Shown: positions 425 to 63,496, counted from the stretch's first letter. The stretch is 64,000 nucleotides of DNA from a virus (IMGVR_UViG_2690316311_000019), one strand, 5' to 3'. Made by a program: numbers and translations. The notes: a model not told the origin generated them from the letters alone.

Positions 425-2212
425 TGTCAGGCATTCAGTATCGCGGGATTACGTGGTGGGCTTGATGATGAGCGTGGCGCGCTAACTTTAAAGTATGTGG
501 AGTTTGCAAATGCAATTGACGACAAACGGGCTGAGTCATTTCTCAAACCAGCCGTTATCGTCTGGGAAAATGTCCCAGGAGTCTTGTCATCGGCAGATAA
601 CGCCTTCGGATGTTTCCTTGCCGGATTGGCTGGAGAAGATGTGCCATTTGAACCAGGTGATCGACCTGAATCAGGAAAAAGCAACGCGTTCTGGCGGTGG
701 GATGGCAAAACCGGTTGCCATGTTCCAAAGTGGCCGCAGTGTGGTTGTATTTATGGACCGCAGCGAAAAGTGGCCTGGAGAATCCTTGATGCCCAATACT
801 TCGGAGTGGCACAACGACGCCGACGCGTGTTTGTTGTCGCAAGTGCTCGAACAGATCTCGATCCCGCAACGGTACTTTTTGAGTTCGAAGGCGTGCGCCG
901 GAATATTGCGCCGAGCAGAGGCGAGGGGAAGGAAACTACCAGATATACTTCAAACATCGCTATCAGAACTTGCGATGATACAAACATAATTGCCATGGCA
1001 CATGGGCAAGGAGGGGCTGAGATAAAAACCGATAATTCGGCACCAACTTTGACATGTAACCATGAAGCACCAATTGTATTGCTCGGCGACGGTAGAATGC
1101 GCCGTCTTACCCCTGTCGAATGTGAAAGGCTGCAAGGTTTTCCTGATTGGCATACGTTGATCCCTACGGAAAAGCGTAAAAAAGTTAATTCAGATGAACT
1201 GGCATATCTGCACAATCACTATCCAGATTTAAGCGAAGAAGAGGCCGCAATGCTTGCAGCTGACGGACCGCGTTACAAAGCGATCGGCAATAGTATGGCA
1301 ATACCAGTAATGCGCTGGATTGGCGATCGGATTACTAAGGCCGTATGTCGGCAGAAAGAAGGAAGTGAAACAAAAGAGCGAAAAGTTAAACCAGCGGCAG
1401 AATTCGAACGGTCCATATTCAAATGGGCTGGTGGAAAATTTGGTGTTCTGGAACAAATCTTTCGCTATTTGCCAGAAGGGAAGCGCCTGATTGAACCTTT
1501 CGTTGGTGGCGGAGCTGTCTTCATGAATGCCGGATACCAGGAAAATCTGCTAAATGATGTGAATGCTGACCTGATTAACTTTTACAAGACTCTGCAACGC
1601 GAGGCGCATTCACTTATCACTCTGGCACATCGTTTCTTCCAGGACTACAACACACAGGAAGGATACCTGGCAGTACGGAATGCGTTTAACAAACAAGTCT
1701 ATGATGATTTACATCGCGCAGCGGCGTTTTTGTTCCTGAACCGACATTGTTTTAACGGATTGACGCGTTACAACCAGGCCGGTGAGTTCAATGTCGGTTA
1801 TGGGAAGTATAAAACTCCGTATTTCCCATTACAGGAGATGGAAGCCTTCCTCGGTGCGGAAGGGCGGTCTGAGTTTGTATGCGGTGATTTTGCAGCGGTG
1901 ATTGAAGCTGCCGGAGAAGGAGATGTCATCTTTTGCGATCCGCCGTATGAACCGCTTCCAAATACAGAGGGATTCACGAACTATTCCGGTCATGACTTTA
2001 AGTTTGAAGAGCAAAAACGCCTGGTGTCTCTGTTGACGGATGCTCATCGTCGAGGTGCAAAGGTTCTCATTACTAACAGTGGCGCGCCAAACATCAGAGA
2101 GCTTTATCATGACAGTGGCTTCAGAGTGGAACCTCTTTTTGCCAGACGTTCTGTGTCTTGTAAGGGGGACACTCGAGGTGTAGCTCATGACGTTTTGGGT
2201 ATATTGCTCTAA
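2..2212 (+). CDS. dmt: Bifunctional DNA methyltransferase Dmt, 5'-partial (frame open to window edge): C5-cytosine MTase motifs IV-X followed by Dam-like N6-adenine MTase domain
   Basis: CQAFSIAG (motif IV Cys at nt 425-427), ENVPGV, QRRRRVFVV, LQGFPDW, GNSMAIPV; C-terminal domain with KWAGGKFG, EPFVGGGAV and DPPY; stop TAA 2210-2212. Confidence 0.8.
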   Translation, partial: ELSHAKRIPAWVMSHPLRHVFLQGYLDTDGTPSGKAGFRINSVSSALAWGVAGLSQTCGYVSSVSFIEVEPKKVIEDRVVNQRNYYQVTICPQKLSRKSRLAHGMLLRTVKEFKSVGLDTVYNIEVEGDHSYILNGAVVHNCQAFSIAGLRGGLDDERGALTLKYVEFANAIDDKRAESFLKPAVIVWENVPGVLSSADNAFGCFLAGLAGEDVPFEPGDRPESGKSNAFWRWDGKTGCHVPKWPQCGCIYGPQRKVAWRILDAQYFGVAQRRRRVFVVASARTDLDPATVLFEFEGVRRNIAPSRGEGKETTRYTSNIAIRTCDDTNIIAMAHGQGGAEIKTDNSAPTLTCNHEAPIVLLGDGRMRRLTPVECERLQGFPDWHTLIPTEKRKKVNSDELAYLHNHYPDLSEEEAAMLAADGPRYKAIGNSMAIPVMRWIGDRITKAVCRQKEGSETKERKVKPAAEFERSIFKWAGGKFGVLEQIFRYLPEGKRLIEPFVGGGAVFMNAGYQENLLNDVNADLINFYKTLQREAHSLITLAHRFFQDYNTQEGYLAVRNAFNKQVYDDLHRAAAFLFLNRHCFNGLTRYNQAGEFNVGYGKYKTPYFPLQEMEAFLGAEGRSEFVCGDFAAVIEAAGEGDVIFCDPPYEPLPNTEGFTNYSGHDFKFEEQKRLVSLLTDAHRRGAKVLITNSGAPNIRELYHDSGFRVEPLFARRSVSCKGDTRGVAHDVLGILL

Positions 2213-2219
2213 TAAATTT
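2203..2219 (+). promoter_or_regulatory. C1 repressor operator (ATTGCTCTAATAAATTT) overlapping the dmt stop codon
   Basis: Exact 17-bp match to the P1 C1 operator consensus; partial inverted copy immediately downstream. Confidence 0.7.
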
Positions 2220-2393
2220 ATTAGTGTAATATCACCTCAATGAATCGTGATTTATAGAGCGATTTAGCTGTTAGCCGCGACAGGCGCGGCGGTAAGCATG
2301 GCTGGGCCTAGTCCTCCCAGACAAACCACCGAGTTGCCAGGTTGACCATGCGCCTAAGTGGCAACGCCGAAGTGCGTTACGAGCGTCCAGTTT

Positions 2394-2419
2394 GCCCATC
2401 TTCGGGTGGGCGTTTTTTT
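2394..2419 (+). terminator. Rho-independent terminator (GCCCATC-TTCG-GGTGGGC + T7)
   Basis: 7-bp GC-rich stem, tetraloop, followed by run of 7 T. Confidence 0.6.
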
Positions 2420-2603
2420 CAGGGTTTTCGTCATGGTTAGCGACTTTGCGGCGGTTTAGAAACTGACCATTAAAGTAAATGCAAACGATGATCTGATGAT
2501 GGTAGCGGCCTAAGAAGCCAGATGCCATGGGGTATGAGTCGTCCCCCGTCAAAAAATCGACCGCAGAGTGTCCCCGTCTGTGTATTAGGGAACGGGGAGG
2601 CAC

Positions 2604-2678
2604 AACAGGTAAGGGCGCTGGTGTGATTAACCAGATGAACGAGAAGGGGCCATCTGTTGGTCAGCGTCCTTTCCTGTT
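2604..2678 (+). repeat. Hairpin element E0 of a 4-member family (arms AACAGGTAAGGGCGCTG / CAGCGTCCTTTCCTGTT)
   Basis: Imperfect inverted repeat whose arm sequence is shared with elements at 3136, 3507 and 3779. Confidence 0.5.
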
Positions 2679-2884
2679 GCGTTTTCTTTTCAGCGTAACA
2701 GCGGTGCTTAACAGCACTTTGGGTACAGTTCCACGAATTTACGGGTATATCCCGTCATGCTGAAGGCGCTAATCACGCTGGAAGCCAGGGTTATGCATCC
2801 CCTGTTACCGAATTGCAGCCAGGGCGCGGTGCGCCGAAAAGCATACGGAGGTGGAAGCCCTCGCCGGAGACGTACCCGGCAAGT

Positions 2885-2959
2885 GATGGTGTAGCTCAGC
2901 GGTAGAGCAGTTGGCTGTTAACCAACTGGTCGGTAGTTCGAATCCACCCACCATCGCCA
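2885..2959 (+). tRNA. tRNA-Asn (anticodon GTT)
   Basis: Cloverleaf read by hand: acceptor GATGGTG/CACCATC, D-arm GCTC-AGCGGTA-GAGC, anticodon stem GTTGG/CCAAC with loop CTGTTAA, T-loop TTCGAAT, discriminator G + CCA. Confidence 0.8.
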
Positions 2960-2964
2960 CTTTA

Positions 2965-3051
2965 GGGGAGTTAGTCCGTAGGGGTAGCGGGGTAGACTGT
3001 AAATCTACTGTCATTGCGACTCGGGTGGTTCGACTCCATCACTCCCCACCA
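2965..3051 (+). tRNA. Type-II (long variable arm) tRNA-Tyr-like, anticodon GTA; D-arm pairing irregular, may be a pseudo-tRNA
   Basis: Acceptor GGGGAGT/ACTCCCC + A + CCA; anticodon stem GTAGA/TCTAC with loop CTGTAAA; variable arm and T-arm resemble E. coli tRNA-Tyr. Confidence 0.5.
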
Positions 3052-3055
3052 CATT

Positions 3056-3131
3056 GCCGATTTAGCTCAGTTGGTAGAGCAGTCGCTTTGTAAGCGAATG
3101 GTCAGCGGTTCGATCCCGTTAATCGGCACCA
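3056..3131 (+). tRNA. tRNA-Thr (anticodon TGT)
   Basis: Acceptor GCCGATT/AATCGGC, D-arm GCTC-AGTTGGTA-GAGC, anticodon loop TTTGTAA, T-loop TTCGATC, CCA end. Confidence 0.75.
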
Positions 3132-3135
3132 ACAT

Positions 3136-3210
3136 AACAGGTAAGAGCATTCTCCCTTATGGGGCCTGGCTTAAATGCATCGAGTGCTCTTACCGTTGTG
3201 ATGAAGTGCA
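3136..3210 (+). repeat. Hairpin element E1 (arms ACAGGTAAGAGCATTCTC / GAGTGCTCTTACC, conserved 3' tail GTTGTGATGAAGTGCAG)
   Basis: Immediately downstream of tRNA-Thr; arm and tail shared with E2/E3. Confidence 0.5.
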
Positions 3211-3506
3211 GATCTTAGAAGCAACCAGAAGATAAGCATCTGGCTTCACAACATAAACCGCAGGAACGACCAATAAACGGTAGTCCGTATGGAGAACACC
3301 CCGTTGAGGAAGAGGCCTGGCCGGAACCGTAACCGGCGACTGGTAATGTGTGTAAATGGAGCGAAATATGTGGGCGTTTAACGGGATACGGGTTGTAACA
3401 GCGATTATTAACGGCGAACTTAAGTATTCACGTTTCGAGACAAATGAACGTGATGGGAAATGTATTGGTGTGCGGTTAGTAAGAGAATACGCATAACAAC
3501 TACAAC

Positions 3507-3606
3507 GTTGAGAACACTGGCGTAACGGGGTCATATCCCAATCTACGAATAAATGTTGCGTTGCCGCGTGACAACCAGTGTTCTCAACATTGTGGTGAAT
3601 GCACAG
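3507..3606 (+). repeat. Hairpin element E2 (perfect 14-bp stem GTTGAGAACACTGG / CCAGTGTTCTCAAC; loop contains GTAACGGGGTCATATCCCAATCTAC; tail ATTGTGGTGAATGCACAGG)
   Basis: Loop motif and tail shared with E3. Confidence 0.5.
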
Positions 3607-3778
3607 GCTGATGTGCCGCAACTACAGTAGTGCGCGCTTTGCGGGGCTTGCTACAACCCTGTGTCGGAGTTCAGCACCGACCATCACAGTTTGATTCTCT
3701 GGCATGAGCATAACGCTGAAATAAGTCCAGTCTGGTGCGGTCTGATCACCCGCCGTTAGCTCCACGAAACGGAGCACG

Positions 3779-3864
3779 TAACAGGTAAGAGCATTCTCCT
3801 GTAACGGGTTCATATCCCAATCTACAGGTCCACCAAGAATGCTCTTTCCGTTGCGGTGAATGCG
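3779..3864 (+). repeat. Hairpin element E3 (arms of E1 + loop motif of E2; tail GTTGCGGTGAATGCGG)
   Basis: AACAGGTAAGAGCATTCTCC ... GTAACGGGTTCATATCCCAATCTAC ... GAATGCTCTTTCC. Confidence 0.5.
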
Positions 3865-4004
3865 GCTAAGCGCACGCGGGGAAATGGTTATATCTGTCCA
3901 TTATTTCTCCTTGTTTCCACGTCCACGGTGGATAACCAGCCAAAGGACACCGGGAGGAACCCGGCACCGCAGCTTTTTTATTCGTTAAATAATGGAGTGA
4001 GAGG

Positions 4005-4241
4005 ATGCAGAACAATCCGAACAAATGTCGAACGCTATGGGTGCGGTTATATATTTATGCCGTCCTCTGTTTGATTGTGTCACTGGTTCTGTATGTTTGG
4101 CTTTTGCCAAATATGATCTCATCTAACAGCACAATACTTGTATTGTTGGGAGTCCTTCTCGCGCTCATTTACCCGGCTTTCGCAGTAGTCTTTTTTCGTG
4201 AAAAAACCAGGAAATTAATTAATGAAAAAAACGTTGATTAG
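4005..4241 (+). CDS. upl: Small two-helix membrane protein upstream of plp
   Basis: 78-aa hydrophobic ORF with GAGAGG RBS; position immediately upstream of lipoprotein gene. Confidence 0.5.
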   Translation: MQNNPNKCRTLWVRLYIYAVLCLIVSLVLYVWLLPNMISSNSTILVLLGVLLALIYPAFAVVFFREKTRKLINEKNVD

Positions 4242-5049
4242 TGCAGCGATTATTTTGGGTTCTTTATGTCTGACCGGATGCGATCGGGTAGAGCCAGGTA
4301 ACGTAGGGATCAAAGTAAATAAGCTGGGGGATGATAAAGGTATCGGTGAAGTAGTTGGCGTTGGTCGCTACTGGACAGGCTTGAATACTGAAGTTTATAT
4401 CTTCCCGACCTTTAAGCAAATGAAGACATACGATGAGCCGTTCAGCTTCCAGATGAGCGACGGAACAACCATTGGTTACCACATCGGCGTAGCCTACAAG
4501 GTTGATCCAGCAAAAGTCACAACGGTATTTCAGACCTATCGCAAAGGTGTAGATGATATTACTGATACCGATCTACGCCAGAAGGTTGCAGATGCTCTGA
4601 ACCGATTAGCCAGCAAAATGACCACCGACAAATTTATCGACGGTGGCAAATCTGAATTGCTTGATGCAGCCCTTAAAGACATTCAGGAAGAAATGACGCC
4701 AATCGGCATTCAGGTGATGAGCCTCTCTTATGTAGGTAAGCCAGAATACCCGCCAACAGTTATTGACAGTATTAACGCCAAAGTCACGGCAAACCAAAAA
4801 ACCCTGCAACGCGAGCAAGAGGTCAAACAACGTGAAGCAGAGGCCAACATGCTGCGCGCGGAAGCTGCCGGACAGGCTGATGCTATTCGCACAAAAGCCC
4901 AGGCCGAAGCTGATGCCATTCGTTTACGTGGTGAAGCTCTGCGCCAGAACCCCGGTGTTATGGACTTGGAAGCGATCAACAAATGGAACGGTACATTACC
5001 GCAGTATATGACCAGTAATACCGCTGTTCCGTTTGTTCCGGTGAAATAA
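4222..5049 (+). CDS. plp: Lipoprotein, SPFH/band-7-like
   Basis: Lipobox LCLTGC after signal peptide; 275 aa. Confidence 0.65.
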   Translation: MKKTLISAAIILGSLCLTGCDRVEPGNVGIKVNKLGDDKGIGEVVGVGRYWTGLNTEVYIFPTFKQMKTYDEPFSFQMSDGTTIGYHIGVAYKVDPAKVTTVFQTYRKGVDDITDTDLRQKVADALNRLASKMTTDKFIDGGKSELLDAALKDIQEEMTPIGIQVMSLSYVGKPEYPPTVIDSINAKVTANQKTLQREQEVKQREAEANMLRAEAAGQADAIRTKAQAEADAIRLRGEALRQNPGVMDLEAINKWNGTLPQYMTSNTAVPFVPVK

Positions 5050-5076
5050 AAGCGTAAGCAAAATTGGCAGTAATCC

Positions 5077-5152
5077 GGCCCTTTAGCTCAGTGGTTAGAG
5101 CTGGCGACTCATAATCGCACGGTCACCGGTTCAAGTCCGGTAGGGGCCACCA
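5077..5152 (+). tRNA. tRNA-Ile2-like (anticodon CAT, ileX-type, lysidine-decoding candidate)
   Basis: Acceptor GGCCCTT/AGGGGCC, anticodon loop CTCATAA, T-loop TTCAAGT, ACCA end; near-identical architecture to E. coli ileX. Confidence 0.7.
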
Positions 5153-5426
5153 TATTTGGTTGTAACACGGCGTCTGGCACATGCGTCGTTAGCGGTCTGG
5201 TGACGTTAAAGGGGTAACCTTTCCCCTAGCTCAGGCAACAAACCAGGTAGCCGGAATGTGCAAGCCCCGTTCATAGCGTCGGACTGCGGATTCACCATCC
5301 TGGCGATTCGGTGTGACAACCGGGAAGAGTCCGGCGCATTAATCCTGATTTTCTGGTGATGACTCATATCGTTAGGAGTGATTTGAGTATGCCGATTATA
5401 TCTGACATTCAGCACGCCTGGGTGGA

Positions 5427-32699: not shown

Positions 32700-32796
32700 T
32701 CGGTTTATGCTTATCAGGCACCTCATTAAAACGGGTGCCGGGATTGGCCTCCCGCTTAAGTCTAAGGCGATACAGACGCCGCTCGCGTCTTTTTTT
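32700..32796 (+). ncRNA. Candidate C4-type antisense RNA (anti-SD GCCTCCC, duplicate GTCTAAGG box, intrinsic terminator)
   Basis: GCCTCCC at about 32747 complementary to RBS GGAGGC at about 32949; hairpin GACGC-CGCTC-GCGTC + T7 at 32775-32796; no credible ORF. Confidence 0.35.
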
Positions 32797-32961
32797 GTAT
32801 CGGCGTACACGCACACCTCTACAATGGTGGGCTGTATGGGGCTACCTTCGGGTAGGCTGGTTACCTTGGACGCCAGTAAGGCCAACTCCGTACAGTCCAC
32901 CGCCAGCAAGATTGGTCTCTTCTGCGGTGGTTACATACCAACGTCTAAGGAGGCTGCCAAT

Positions 32962-62918: not shown

Positions 62919-63496
62919 TTATTGCGGGGCGACTGGCCACTCAACATCCGATGCTACTGTTGTATCAACACGATTCAACAATACCCGATATGTCTTCCAT
63001 GCAGTCAGTAACGATGCCTCTTCCTCCGTCGCAATATCCAAATCTACGGCATCCTGAAGTGGCGCAATATGCTCACTGGCCATCTGCATCAGGCTGTTTT
63101 TTGTTTCTTCCGCCTTCCGGATCCGGAACAGTTTTTCTGCTTCTGCATCTTTCACCCAGGCTGTGCCGTTCCACTTCTGAAACTCCCCTTCCGGGGATAA
63201 CCAGGTGACATTTTCCGGTAATGGGCCAAGTTCAGAAATAAATAACGCGTCGCCGGAAGCCACGTCATAGACGGTTTTTCCCCGATGGTCTTCAACGAGA
63301 TTCCACGATGCCTCATCACTGTTGAAAACGGCCACGAAGCCAGCCGGAATATCTGGCGGGGCAATATCGGTACTGTTTGCAGGCAGACCTGTATGAGGTG
63401 GAATGTATGCATCACCTTCACCAATAAACTCATTGGTTCCAGCCAGTAGATTATAAATTTTTATGGTCCGTGATTGTTCACTCATTCTGAATGTCA

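Follow-up and report, generated by a model that had tools for sequence, protein, structure and literature searches.

In phage T5, a virulent phage, a gene for tRNA-Tyr (T5t22) lies in a tRNA-rich region of about 8 kb and has its own strong promoter (PMC11555353). The T5 GenBank record notes that with a swapped anticodon this tRNA is an effective amber suppressor. Retron-Eco7 depletes the tRNA-Tyr of the host, and infection is rescued from it by the tRNA-Tyr of T5, of SP15 and of a Klebsiella phage; mutations in the anticodon or stems of the phage tRNA abolish the rescue, which was credited largely to the very strong dedicated promoter in T5 (Azam et al., PMC11555353). An independent structural study confirmed that PtuAB is less toxic in vivo when additional tRNA-Tyr is supplied; cleavage of tRNA-Tyr by PtuAB could not be reproduced in vitro (PMC12819146). 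Evasion of tRNA-depleting defences by means of a tRNA has so far been shown for virulent phages such as T5.

Closer in sequence to the gene considered here, and the closest outside phage-plasmids (90–94% over 87 nt), are the tRNA-Tyr genes of rV5-like (Vequintavirus) and T4-like (Tequatrovirus) phages, which are virulent and have big tRNA sets. Their architecture is identical to that of the present gene while their neighbours differ, being Arg-Tyr-Ser in the rV5-like and Met-Tyr-Asn-Arg in the T4-like phages and Asn-Tyr-Thr here. Closest in genomic setting is the tRNA operon of P1 and P7 (trnA-trnT ... trnI), in the same place between dmt and ban, where Asn and Thr are separated by 2 nt with no Tyr gene between them. 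The P1 record matches what the initial annotation says of P1, namely three tRNAs, for Asn, Thr and Ile.

The locus to be compared with these is at positions 2965–3051 of a stretch of viral DNA 64,000 nucleotides long (IMGVR_UViG_2690316311_000019), analysed as a whole and called the window below. From its sequence and the analyses that follow it is very probably, at roughly 85%, a functional tRNA-Tyr(GUA) gene. It is also an ordinary accessory gene of P1-like phage-plasmids that has already been annotated, and not a discovery. The gene counts as known because it is annotated and because it belongs to a well-populated tRNA family, one member of which has been studied by experiment. For genome annotation it carries little weight, as P1-like elements in GenBank and RefSeq have their tRNA-Tyr named already.

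The gene and its operon

What had been claimed from the sequence was an 87-nt tRNA-Tyr with anticodon GTA between tRNA-Asn and tRNA-Thr, with spacers of 5 and 4 bp. Stems, CCA and coordinates are all as described and the spacers are CTTTA and CATT, so that, with the ARAGORN coordinates, the spacers and the Rfam score in agreement, these statements were correct. The features of the locus and its surroundings are as follows.

2203–2230, no strand assigned: bivalent operator of the C1 repressor (P1 Op72 / Oban), in overlap with the ban promoters; match to P1
2393–2419, plus strand: terminator-like hairpin with a T-run, closing the dicF-like region; terminator scan
2885–2959, plus strand: tRNA-Asn(GUU); ARAGORN, Rfam (69.9 bits), alignments
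2960–2964, plus strand: spacer CTTTA, 5 nt, after tRNA-Asn
2965–3051, plus strand: tRNA-Tyr(GUA), class II, 87 nt including the encoded CCA; ARAGORN, Rfam, RNAfold, covariation, record annotations
2965–2971 with 3041–3047, plus strand: acceptor stem GGGGAGU/ACUCCCC
2972–2975, plus strand: connector UAGU, 4 nt
2976–2979 with 2987–2990, plus strand: D-stem CCGU/GCGG, 4 bp; Infernal alignment and RNAfold MFE
2980–2986, plus strand: D-loop AGGGGUA, a canonical loop with A14, G18-G19 and A21 present
2992–2996 with 3004–3008, plus strand: anticodon stem, the arm being GUAGA-CUGUAAA-UCUAC
2999–3001, plus strand: anticodon GUA
3010–3012 with 3018–3020, plus strand: stem of the long variable arm GUC-AUUGC-GAC
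3024–3028 with 3036–3040, plus strand: T-stem, with the T-loop UUCGACU at 3029–3035
3048, plus strand: discriminator A, followed by the encoded CCA at 3049–3051
3052–3055, plus strand: spacer CATT, 4 nt, before tRNA-Thr
3056–3131, plus strand: tRNA-Thr(UGU), allele A; ARAGORN, Rfam (67.8 bits), alignments
5077–5152, plus strand: fourth tRNA of the operon, anticodon CAU; 100% identical to trnI (tRNA-Ile2) of P1 and P7

The Tyr gene itself reads GGGGAGUUAGUCCGUAGGGGUAGCGGGGUAGACUGUAAAUCUACUGUCAUUGCGACUCGGGUGGUUCGACUCCAUCACUCCCCACCA on the plus strand. The initial annotation had proposed a check with tRNA predictors, and both ARAGORN and the Rfam tRNA model accept the gene: the former calls tRNA-Tyr(gta) at exactly 2965–3051, and with RF00005 the score is 41.9 bits (gathering score 29; E = 1.7e-5 when the whole window is searched), a tRNA match far beyond chance. 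The same model gives E. coli tyrU 53.4 bits. The three E. coli tRNA-Tyr genes (tyrT, tyrV and tyrU) are only 69–71% identical to this one, and share with it the class II layout, the anticodon loop CUGUAAA, A73, G1-C72 and a similar variable arm.

Would such a tRNA be charged and used? It carries U8, A14, G18-G19, A21, U33, U54-U55-C56 and A58. The identity elements of bacterial TyrRS are A73, G1-C72, the anticodon G34-U35-A36 and a long variable arm, and because all of these are present, charging of the phage tRNA by the host TyrRS would be expected. Since its anticodon loop is identical to that of E. coli tRNA-Tyr, it would be expected to read UAU and UAC.

The 740 bp upstream of the tRNA block are 98–99% identical to P1, including the C1 operator, the ban promoters and the dicF-like region, all annotated in the P1 record, and a similar likeness holds for operator, promoters and dicF-like leader when P7 is included. 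The operator consists of a perfect ATTGCTCTAATAAATTT at 2203–2219 (plus strand) and a copy with 2 mismatches at 2214–2230 (minus strand). Because this upstream region and its operator match P1, and trnI is identical, the Asn-Tyr-Thr cassette of this P1-like phage-plasmid is placed by sequence within the ban operon, which C1 represses, with the C1-controlled ban promoters about 650 bp upstream of the tRNAs. If P1 biology is a guide, tRNA-Tyr would be silent in the lysogen and transcribed once C1 repression lifts, and RNase P and 3′ trimming would then excise it from a polycistronic precursor in which CCA is already encoded. As in P1, the strong terminator-like hairpin at 2393–2419 is positioned between the ban promoters and the tRNAs; it consists of GCCCATCTTCGGGTGGGC followed by T7 and is conserved in P1 and P7.

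Unlike the T5 gene, the present copy is in the C1-repressed operon of a temperate phage-plasmid, and beside the tRNAs of the window a counterpart of the strong dedicated T5 promoter is not evident. In a simple scan of 2100–5300 a sigma-70 consensus promoter was not found near the tRNAs, a result that says little either way because the promoters annotated in P1 also went unfound.

On the tRNA at 5077–5152 the records differ. ARAGORN and NC_050153 call it tRNA-Met(CAU) and the P1 record says tRNA-Ile2; from its sequence, the tRNA-Met label in newer records is likely a mis-annotation.

The D-arm and its register

In the initial annotation the D-arm was said to pair poorly. It does so when drawn in the canonical register, in which ARAGORN finds two pairs and mismatches, but once the register is shifted by 2 nt there is a clean 4-bp stem, CCGU/GCGG, and covariation, favouring the shifted register, rules the canonical drawing out. 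The defective look in the canonical register is thus due to a D-stem shifted by 2 nt, behind a connector of 4 nt (UAGU) in place of the usual 2 nt. E. coli tRNA-Tyr, in contrast, has a 2-nt connector (so in tyrU and tyrV), a D-stem of 3 bp (CCC/GGG) and a D-loop of 11 nt, the corresponding sizes in the present gene being 4 nt for the connector, 4 bp for the D-stem and 7 nt for the loop; the distance from acceptor to anticodon stem is 20 nt in both. The RNAfold MFE structure is the cloverleaf with the shifted D-stem. The RNAfold z-score, −0.67, is uninformative on stability.

How far is this register supported by the evolution of the gene? An alignment was made of 18 homologues, a small sample of related sequences, from rV5-like, Cronobacter CR3-like, Pectobacterium, T4-like (of Escherichia and Klebsiella) and T5-like phages, Sugarlandvirus, Felix O1-like and Enterococcus phages and SSU5-like phage-plasmids. 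All the homologues collected have a connector of 4 or 5 nt and then C(C/U)G ... C(G/A)G, the D-arm design shared by the family being UA with 2–3 further nt, then C[C/U]G U ... G C[G/A]G. With the shifted register 99.5% of the cells of the alignment are paired, and with the canonical one 87.4%; for the D-stem on its own the values are 100% and 27.8%. The pairs changed on both sides number 15 of 24 in the shifted and 14 of 24 in the canonical model. None of 500 shuffles matched the values observed for the shifted model, and in slid-partner controls pairing was only 43–56%. In the D-stem there is one compensatory change, CG to UA, coming from two related T5-like phages. A73, the anticodon GUA, A14, G19 and U55 of the T-loop are invariant, G1-C72 is retained in all 18 homologues and G18 in 16 of them. 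As read from this alignment, all five helices are kept through compensatory changes across distant phage families, and the fold that covariation shows is a cloverleaf with its D-stem shifted 2 nt behind a 4-nt connector.

The same layout was met outside the family alignment, in a pattern scan of 110 unique phage tRNA-Tyr sequences from IMG/VR, mostly of unrelated genes. The canonical 2-nt connector fits about 80 of the 110, and nine fit the 4-nt connector only, three of these nine being the present tRNA-Tyr and its SSU5-like variants. By this count, nine of the 110 sampled, the 4-nt-connector design is a minority class, yet a recurrent one. The unrelated genes with this layout have other stems (CGG/CCG and CCGC/GCGG) and therefore give independent support for the shifted register.

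A family of phage tRNA-Tyr genes

At least 80% of the gene is covered in 1359 phage records, at about 77–100% identity, and by sequence it belongs to a family common to T5-like, rV5-like, T4-like, Felix O1-like and other virulent phages. T5 tRNA-Tyr is 83.5% identical to it. The tRNA-Tyr of T5 and of T5-like SP15 resembles the window gene in having a 4-nt connector and a shifted D-stem of 3–4 bp, and shares with it the variable arm GUCAUUGCGAC, the T-arm and A73; the T5 tRNA differs in having G1-U72 and the D-stem CUG/CAG where the window gene has G1-C72 and CCG/CGG.

Members of the family fare badly with generic tools. When 11 of them were searched with Rfam, four scored 29.9–33.6 bits and seven fell under the threshold. 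ARAGORN misses four, those of CR3, of the Enterococcus phages A155 and EFP01, and of SYGMH1. In the copies of the Enterococcus phages CCA is not encoded, and G stands where T54 would be (GGTGCGA or GGTGCAA). In some GenBank records members of the family are tagged tRNA-OTHER, tRNA-Pseudo or tRNA-Val, scattered labels that arise because the tools misdraw, under-score or miss the non-canonical D-arm. Phage genomes probably contain more members of the family than are annotated, and the corrected D-arm register should guard against their dismissal as pseudogenes.

Annotation and distribution

Over 451 bp round the Tyr gene the window is 100% identical to Escherichia phage vB_EcoM-Ro157c2YLVW (MH160767 / NC_050153), the record of which annotates tRNA-Asn, tRNA-Tyr(gta) and tRNA-Thr. 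The same 451 bp are identical in many E. coli plasmids, for example pO111_2 of O111:H- strain 11128, for which RefSeq (NC_013370) has tRNA-Tyr without a pseudogene flag; in the RefSeq (PGAP) entries listed, the gene is called tRNA-Tyr. Was it, then, already annotated in P1 references, an outcome that the initial annotation had allowed for? P1-like records do annotate it, but the P1 reference itself lacks the gene. A search of the accessible literature did not find a paper on this gene.

Over 25 kb the window is about 98–99% identical to several P1-like phages, the figure for Ro157c2YLVW being 98.8% identity across 82%. As the 25-kb comparison is not one of identity, the window is, by sequence, a close relative of that phage and a P1-like element.

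In a census of complete E. coli genomes (n = 5426), with the 87-nt gene sought at 95% identity or more, 269 genomes had it, in 273 copies that were all plasmid-borne, none being chromosomal. It was joined to the P1-specific upstream flank in 101 genomes. The remaining carriers are SSU5-type plasmids of 106–114 kb, for example CMS-2020a and Cyrano, in which the sequence flanking the gene matches Salmonella phage SSU5 at 78.7% identity. As a rough estimate, about 1 in 6 P1-like plasmids carries the gene.

Composition of the tRNA block

The initial annotation had the Tyr gene 'wedged' between its neighbours. It does adjoin Asn and Thr, and the comparison with P1 that had been suggested finds both P1 and P7 without a tRNA-Tyr at this place. 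However, the picture is too simple, and insertion of tRNA-Tyr as the sole event is rejected, because on either side the Asn and Thr genes, too, are other alleles than those of P1. Identity to P1 falls exactly at the tRNA block, where Asn and Thr both show compensated stem differences from P1 and P7. The tRNA-Asn of the window differs from trnA of P1 and P7 and is near-identical to the tRNA-Asn of SSU5-like and N4-like phages.

For tRNA-Thr(UGU) there are two alleles, which differ by compensated changes in the anticodon stem and T-stem and have been shuffled without regard to the Tyr gene or to whether the plasmid is P1-like or SSU5-like. Eight elements were compared.

Window: first slot Asn, Tyr present, Thr allele A
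pESA138_1: first slot Asn, Tyr present, Thr allele B
pRHB22-C23_3: first slot Arg(UCU), Tyr present, Thr allele B
pAVS0578-B: first slot Arg(UCU), Tyr present, Thr allele A
SCU-175 (SSU5-like): first slot Asn, Tyr present, Thr allele A
SCU-107 (SSU5-like): first slot Asn, Tyr present, Thr allele B
P1 and P7: first slot Asn (own allele), Tyr absent, Thr allele B

Among the blocks compared, the four P1-like variants with a Tyr gene have it in identical form, and the two SSU5-like copies are 1–3 bases off. In at least one of the plasmid records listed, NZ_CP043277, there is the P1 flank with tRNA-Arg in the first slot, and the match stops before any Tyr gene. At both junctions of tRNA-Tyr stands AATT; a deletion between these repeats predicts CCAATTGCCG, and P1 has CCAATGCCG, one base off. 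On such sequence comparisons the presence of the Tyr gene here and its absence in P1 and P7 is recombinational shuffling of a modular cassette, in P1-like and SSU5-like phage-plasmids, and the simplest reading is that the conserved tRNA genes would supply the homology through which phages resident in one host exchange cassettes. The tRNA locus of P1 becomes, by this account, a recombination hotspot, at which whole tRNAs and even parts of them are swapped between unrelated phage-plasmids.

The tRNA-Arg(UCU) of pRHB22-C23_3 and pAVS0578-B (401–477 of the compared segments) is homologous to 2885–2959 of the window. Its acceptor stem, discriminator and T-arm are those of tRNA-Asn while its D-loop and anticodon arm differ, and RefSeq has it as tRNA-Arg; from its sequence it looks like a chimera from recombination within the gene. 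In the N4-like phage vB_EcoP_3HA13 (1001–1250 of the compared segment) the order is Asn, 5 nt, Ser(UGA), 4 nt, Thr, with a near-identical Asn and spacer lengths equal to those of the window, the class II tRNA in the middle being unrelated. This arrangement suggests that the place between Asn and Thr is a conserved 'slot'. SSU5-like phage-plasmids (CMS-2020a) have an extra tRNA-Ser(UGA), which follows Asn-Tyr-Thr at a distance of a few hundred bases (3739–3825 and 3473–3559 of two compared segments).

Possible benefit of the gene

Of the two options that the initial annotation left side by side, that of a functional additional tRNA-Tyr is the one supported, by the predictors, the RefSeq calls, the covariation and the T5 homologue. 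What would a phage gain from it? The codons read by the tRNAs in question were counted in 44 long window ORFs taken together, 14,828 codons in all, with these frequencies.

UAU and UAC (Tyr): 30.5 per 1000
AUA (Ile2): 11.1 per 1000
ACA (Thr(UGU)): 11.8 per 1000
AGA (Arg(UCU), a tRNA of the sister plasmids): 5.0 per 1000

E. coli K-12 has, per 1000, about 28 UAU and UAC, 4 AUA, 7 ACA and 2 AGA. Enrichment of Tyr codons was not found in these 44 ORFs, and the suggestion that the gene would matter for codon usage is not supported there. It is because Tyr codons are not enriched that we favour, tentatively, replenishment of a depleted tRNA-Tyr pool as the likeliest benefit. The tRNA would keep the pool filled in lytic growth when defences or competitors deplete the tRNA of the host, retron-Eco7/Ec78 being an example, and as a homologue of the T5 tRNA-Tyr that rescues infection it is a candidate anti-defence tRNA. 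Any benefit is conditional, since most P1-like plasmids manage without the gene.

The usual proposal for phage tRNAs is codon supply, in this case that tRNA-Tyr just boosts translation of Tyr-rich phage genes in lytic growth. For the operon as a whole the proposal has merit, as AUA, ACA and AGA are used at about 1.7–2.5 times the E. coli level, and codon supply explains Ile2, Thr(UGU) and Arg(UCU) well and Asn weakly. For Tyr it does not do well: the frequency in the window is about that of K-12, and E. coli already has three tRNA-Tyr genes of its own, so that for this gene the proposal is doubtful.

Less probable again is that a working gene without benefit was carried in as a neutral passenger by a cassette swap between co-resident phage-plasmids. 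The mosaic block, with its two Thr alleles, its Asn or Arg first genes and its several combinations with and without Tyr, is what such a history would leave; the same Asn-Tyr-Thr block is found in unrelated SSU5-like phage-plasmids, and only some P1-like plasmids, about one in six, carry the gene. However, Tyr is near-invariant across the P1-like and SSU5-like copies amid neighbours that vary, and compensatory evolution has maintained the family in many lineages of virulent phages, which together argue for purifying selection and make a passenger quite unlikely.

The other option first put forward, a decaying pseudo-tRNA with a broken remnant of a D-arm and with processing and charging lost, could appeal to the two D-stem pairs of ARAGORN's canonical fold, to an Rfam score below that of tyrU and to the tRNA-OTHER, tRNA-Pseudo and tRNA-Val labels on some relatives, but it is largely refuted and highly improbable given helices intact in the shifted register, where the D-stem has 4 perfect bp and is both conserved and covarying in the 18 homologues, universal, identity and tertiary-contact nucleotides that are all in place, a T5 homologue of like design that is active in translation, and 95–100% identity among 272 E. 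coli plasmid records.

Replenishment of the tRNA-Tyr pool can be extended to the distribution of the gene. tRNA-Tyr and tRNA-Asn have in common a queuosine-modified G34-U35-N36 anticodon and are substrates of colicin E5. The Tyr gene may persist where retron-Eco7/Ec78, or nucleases such as colicin E5 that act on tRNAs with Q34, deplete tRNA-Tyr, and, owing to the shifted D-arm with its 4-nt connector, degraders of the host tRNA would then act less well on the phage copy. Taken jointly, that the presence or absence of Tyr among P1-like and SSU5-like phage-plasmids is an anti-defence polymorphism and that evasion through the D-arm is part of it, this is unlikely to hold as a whole. If true, it would be the first tRNA-based counter-defence in a temperate phage-plasmid. 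The natural Tyr-plus and Tyr-minus P1-like phages are a ready, nearly isogenic system in which to test tRNA-based evasion of defence.

Other RNA elements in the window

Three further matches to Rfam families lie far from the tRNA operon. An isrK-like Hfq-binding RNA (60.8 bits) at 32718–32795 on the plus strand is immediately 5′ of a C4 antisense RNA (75.9 bits) at 32820–32907, also on the plus strand. Near the end of the window, at 62956–63154 on the minus strand, is an IS009 element (192.4 bits).
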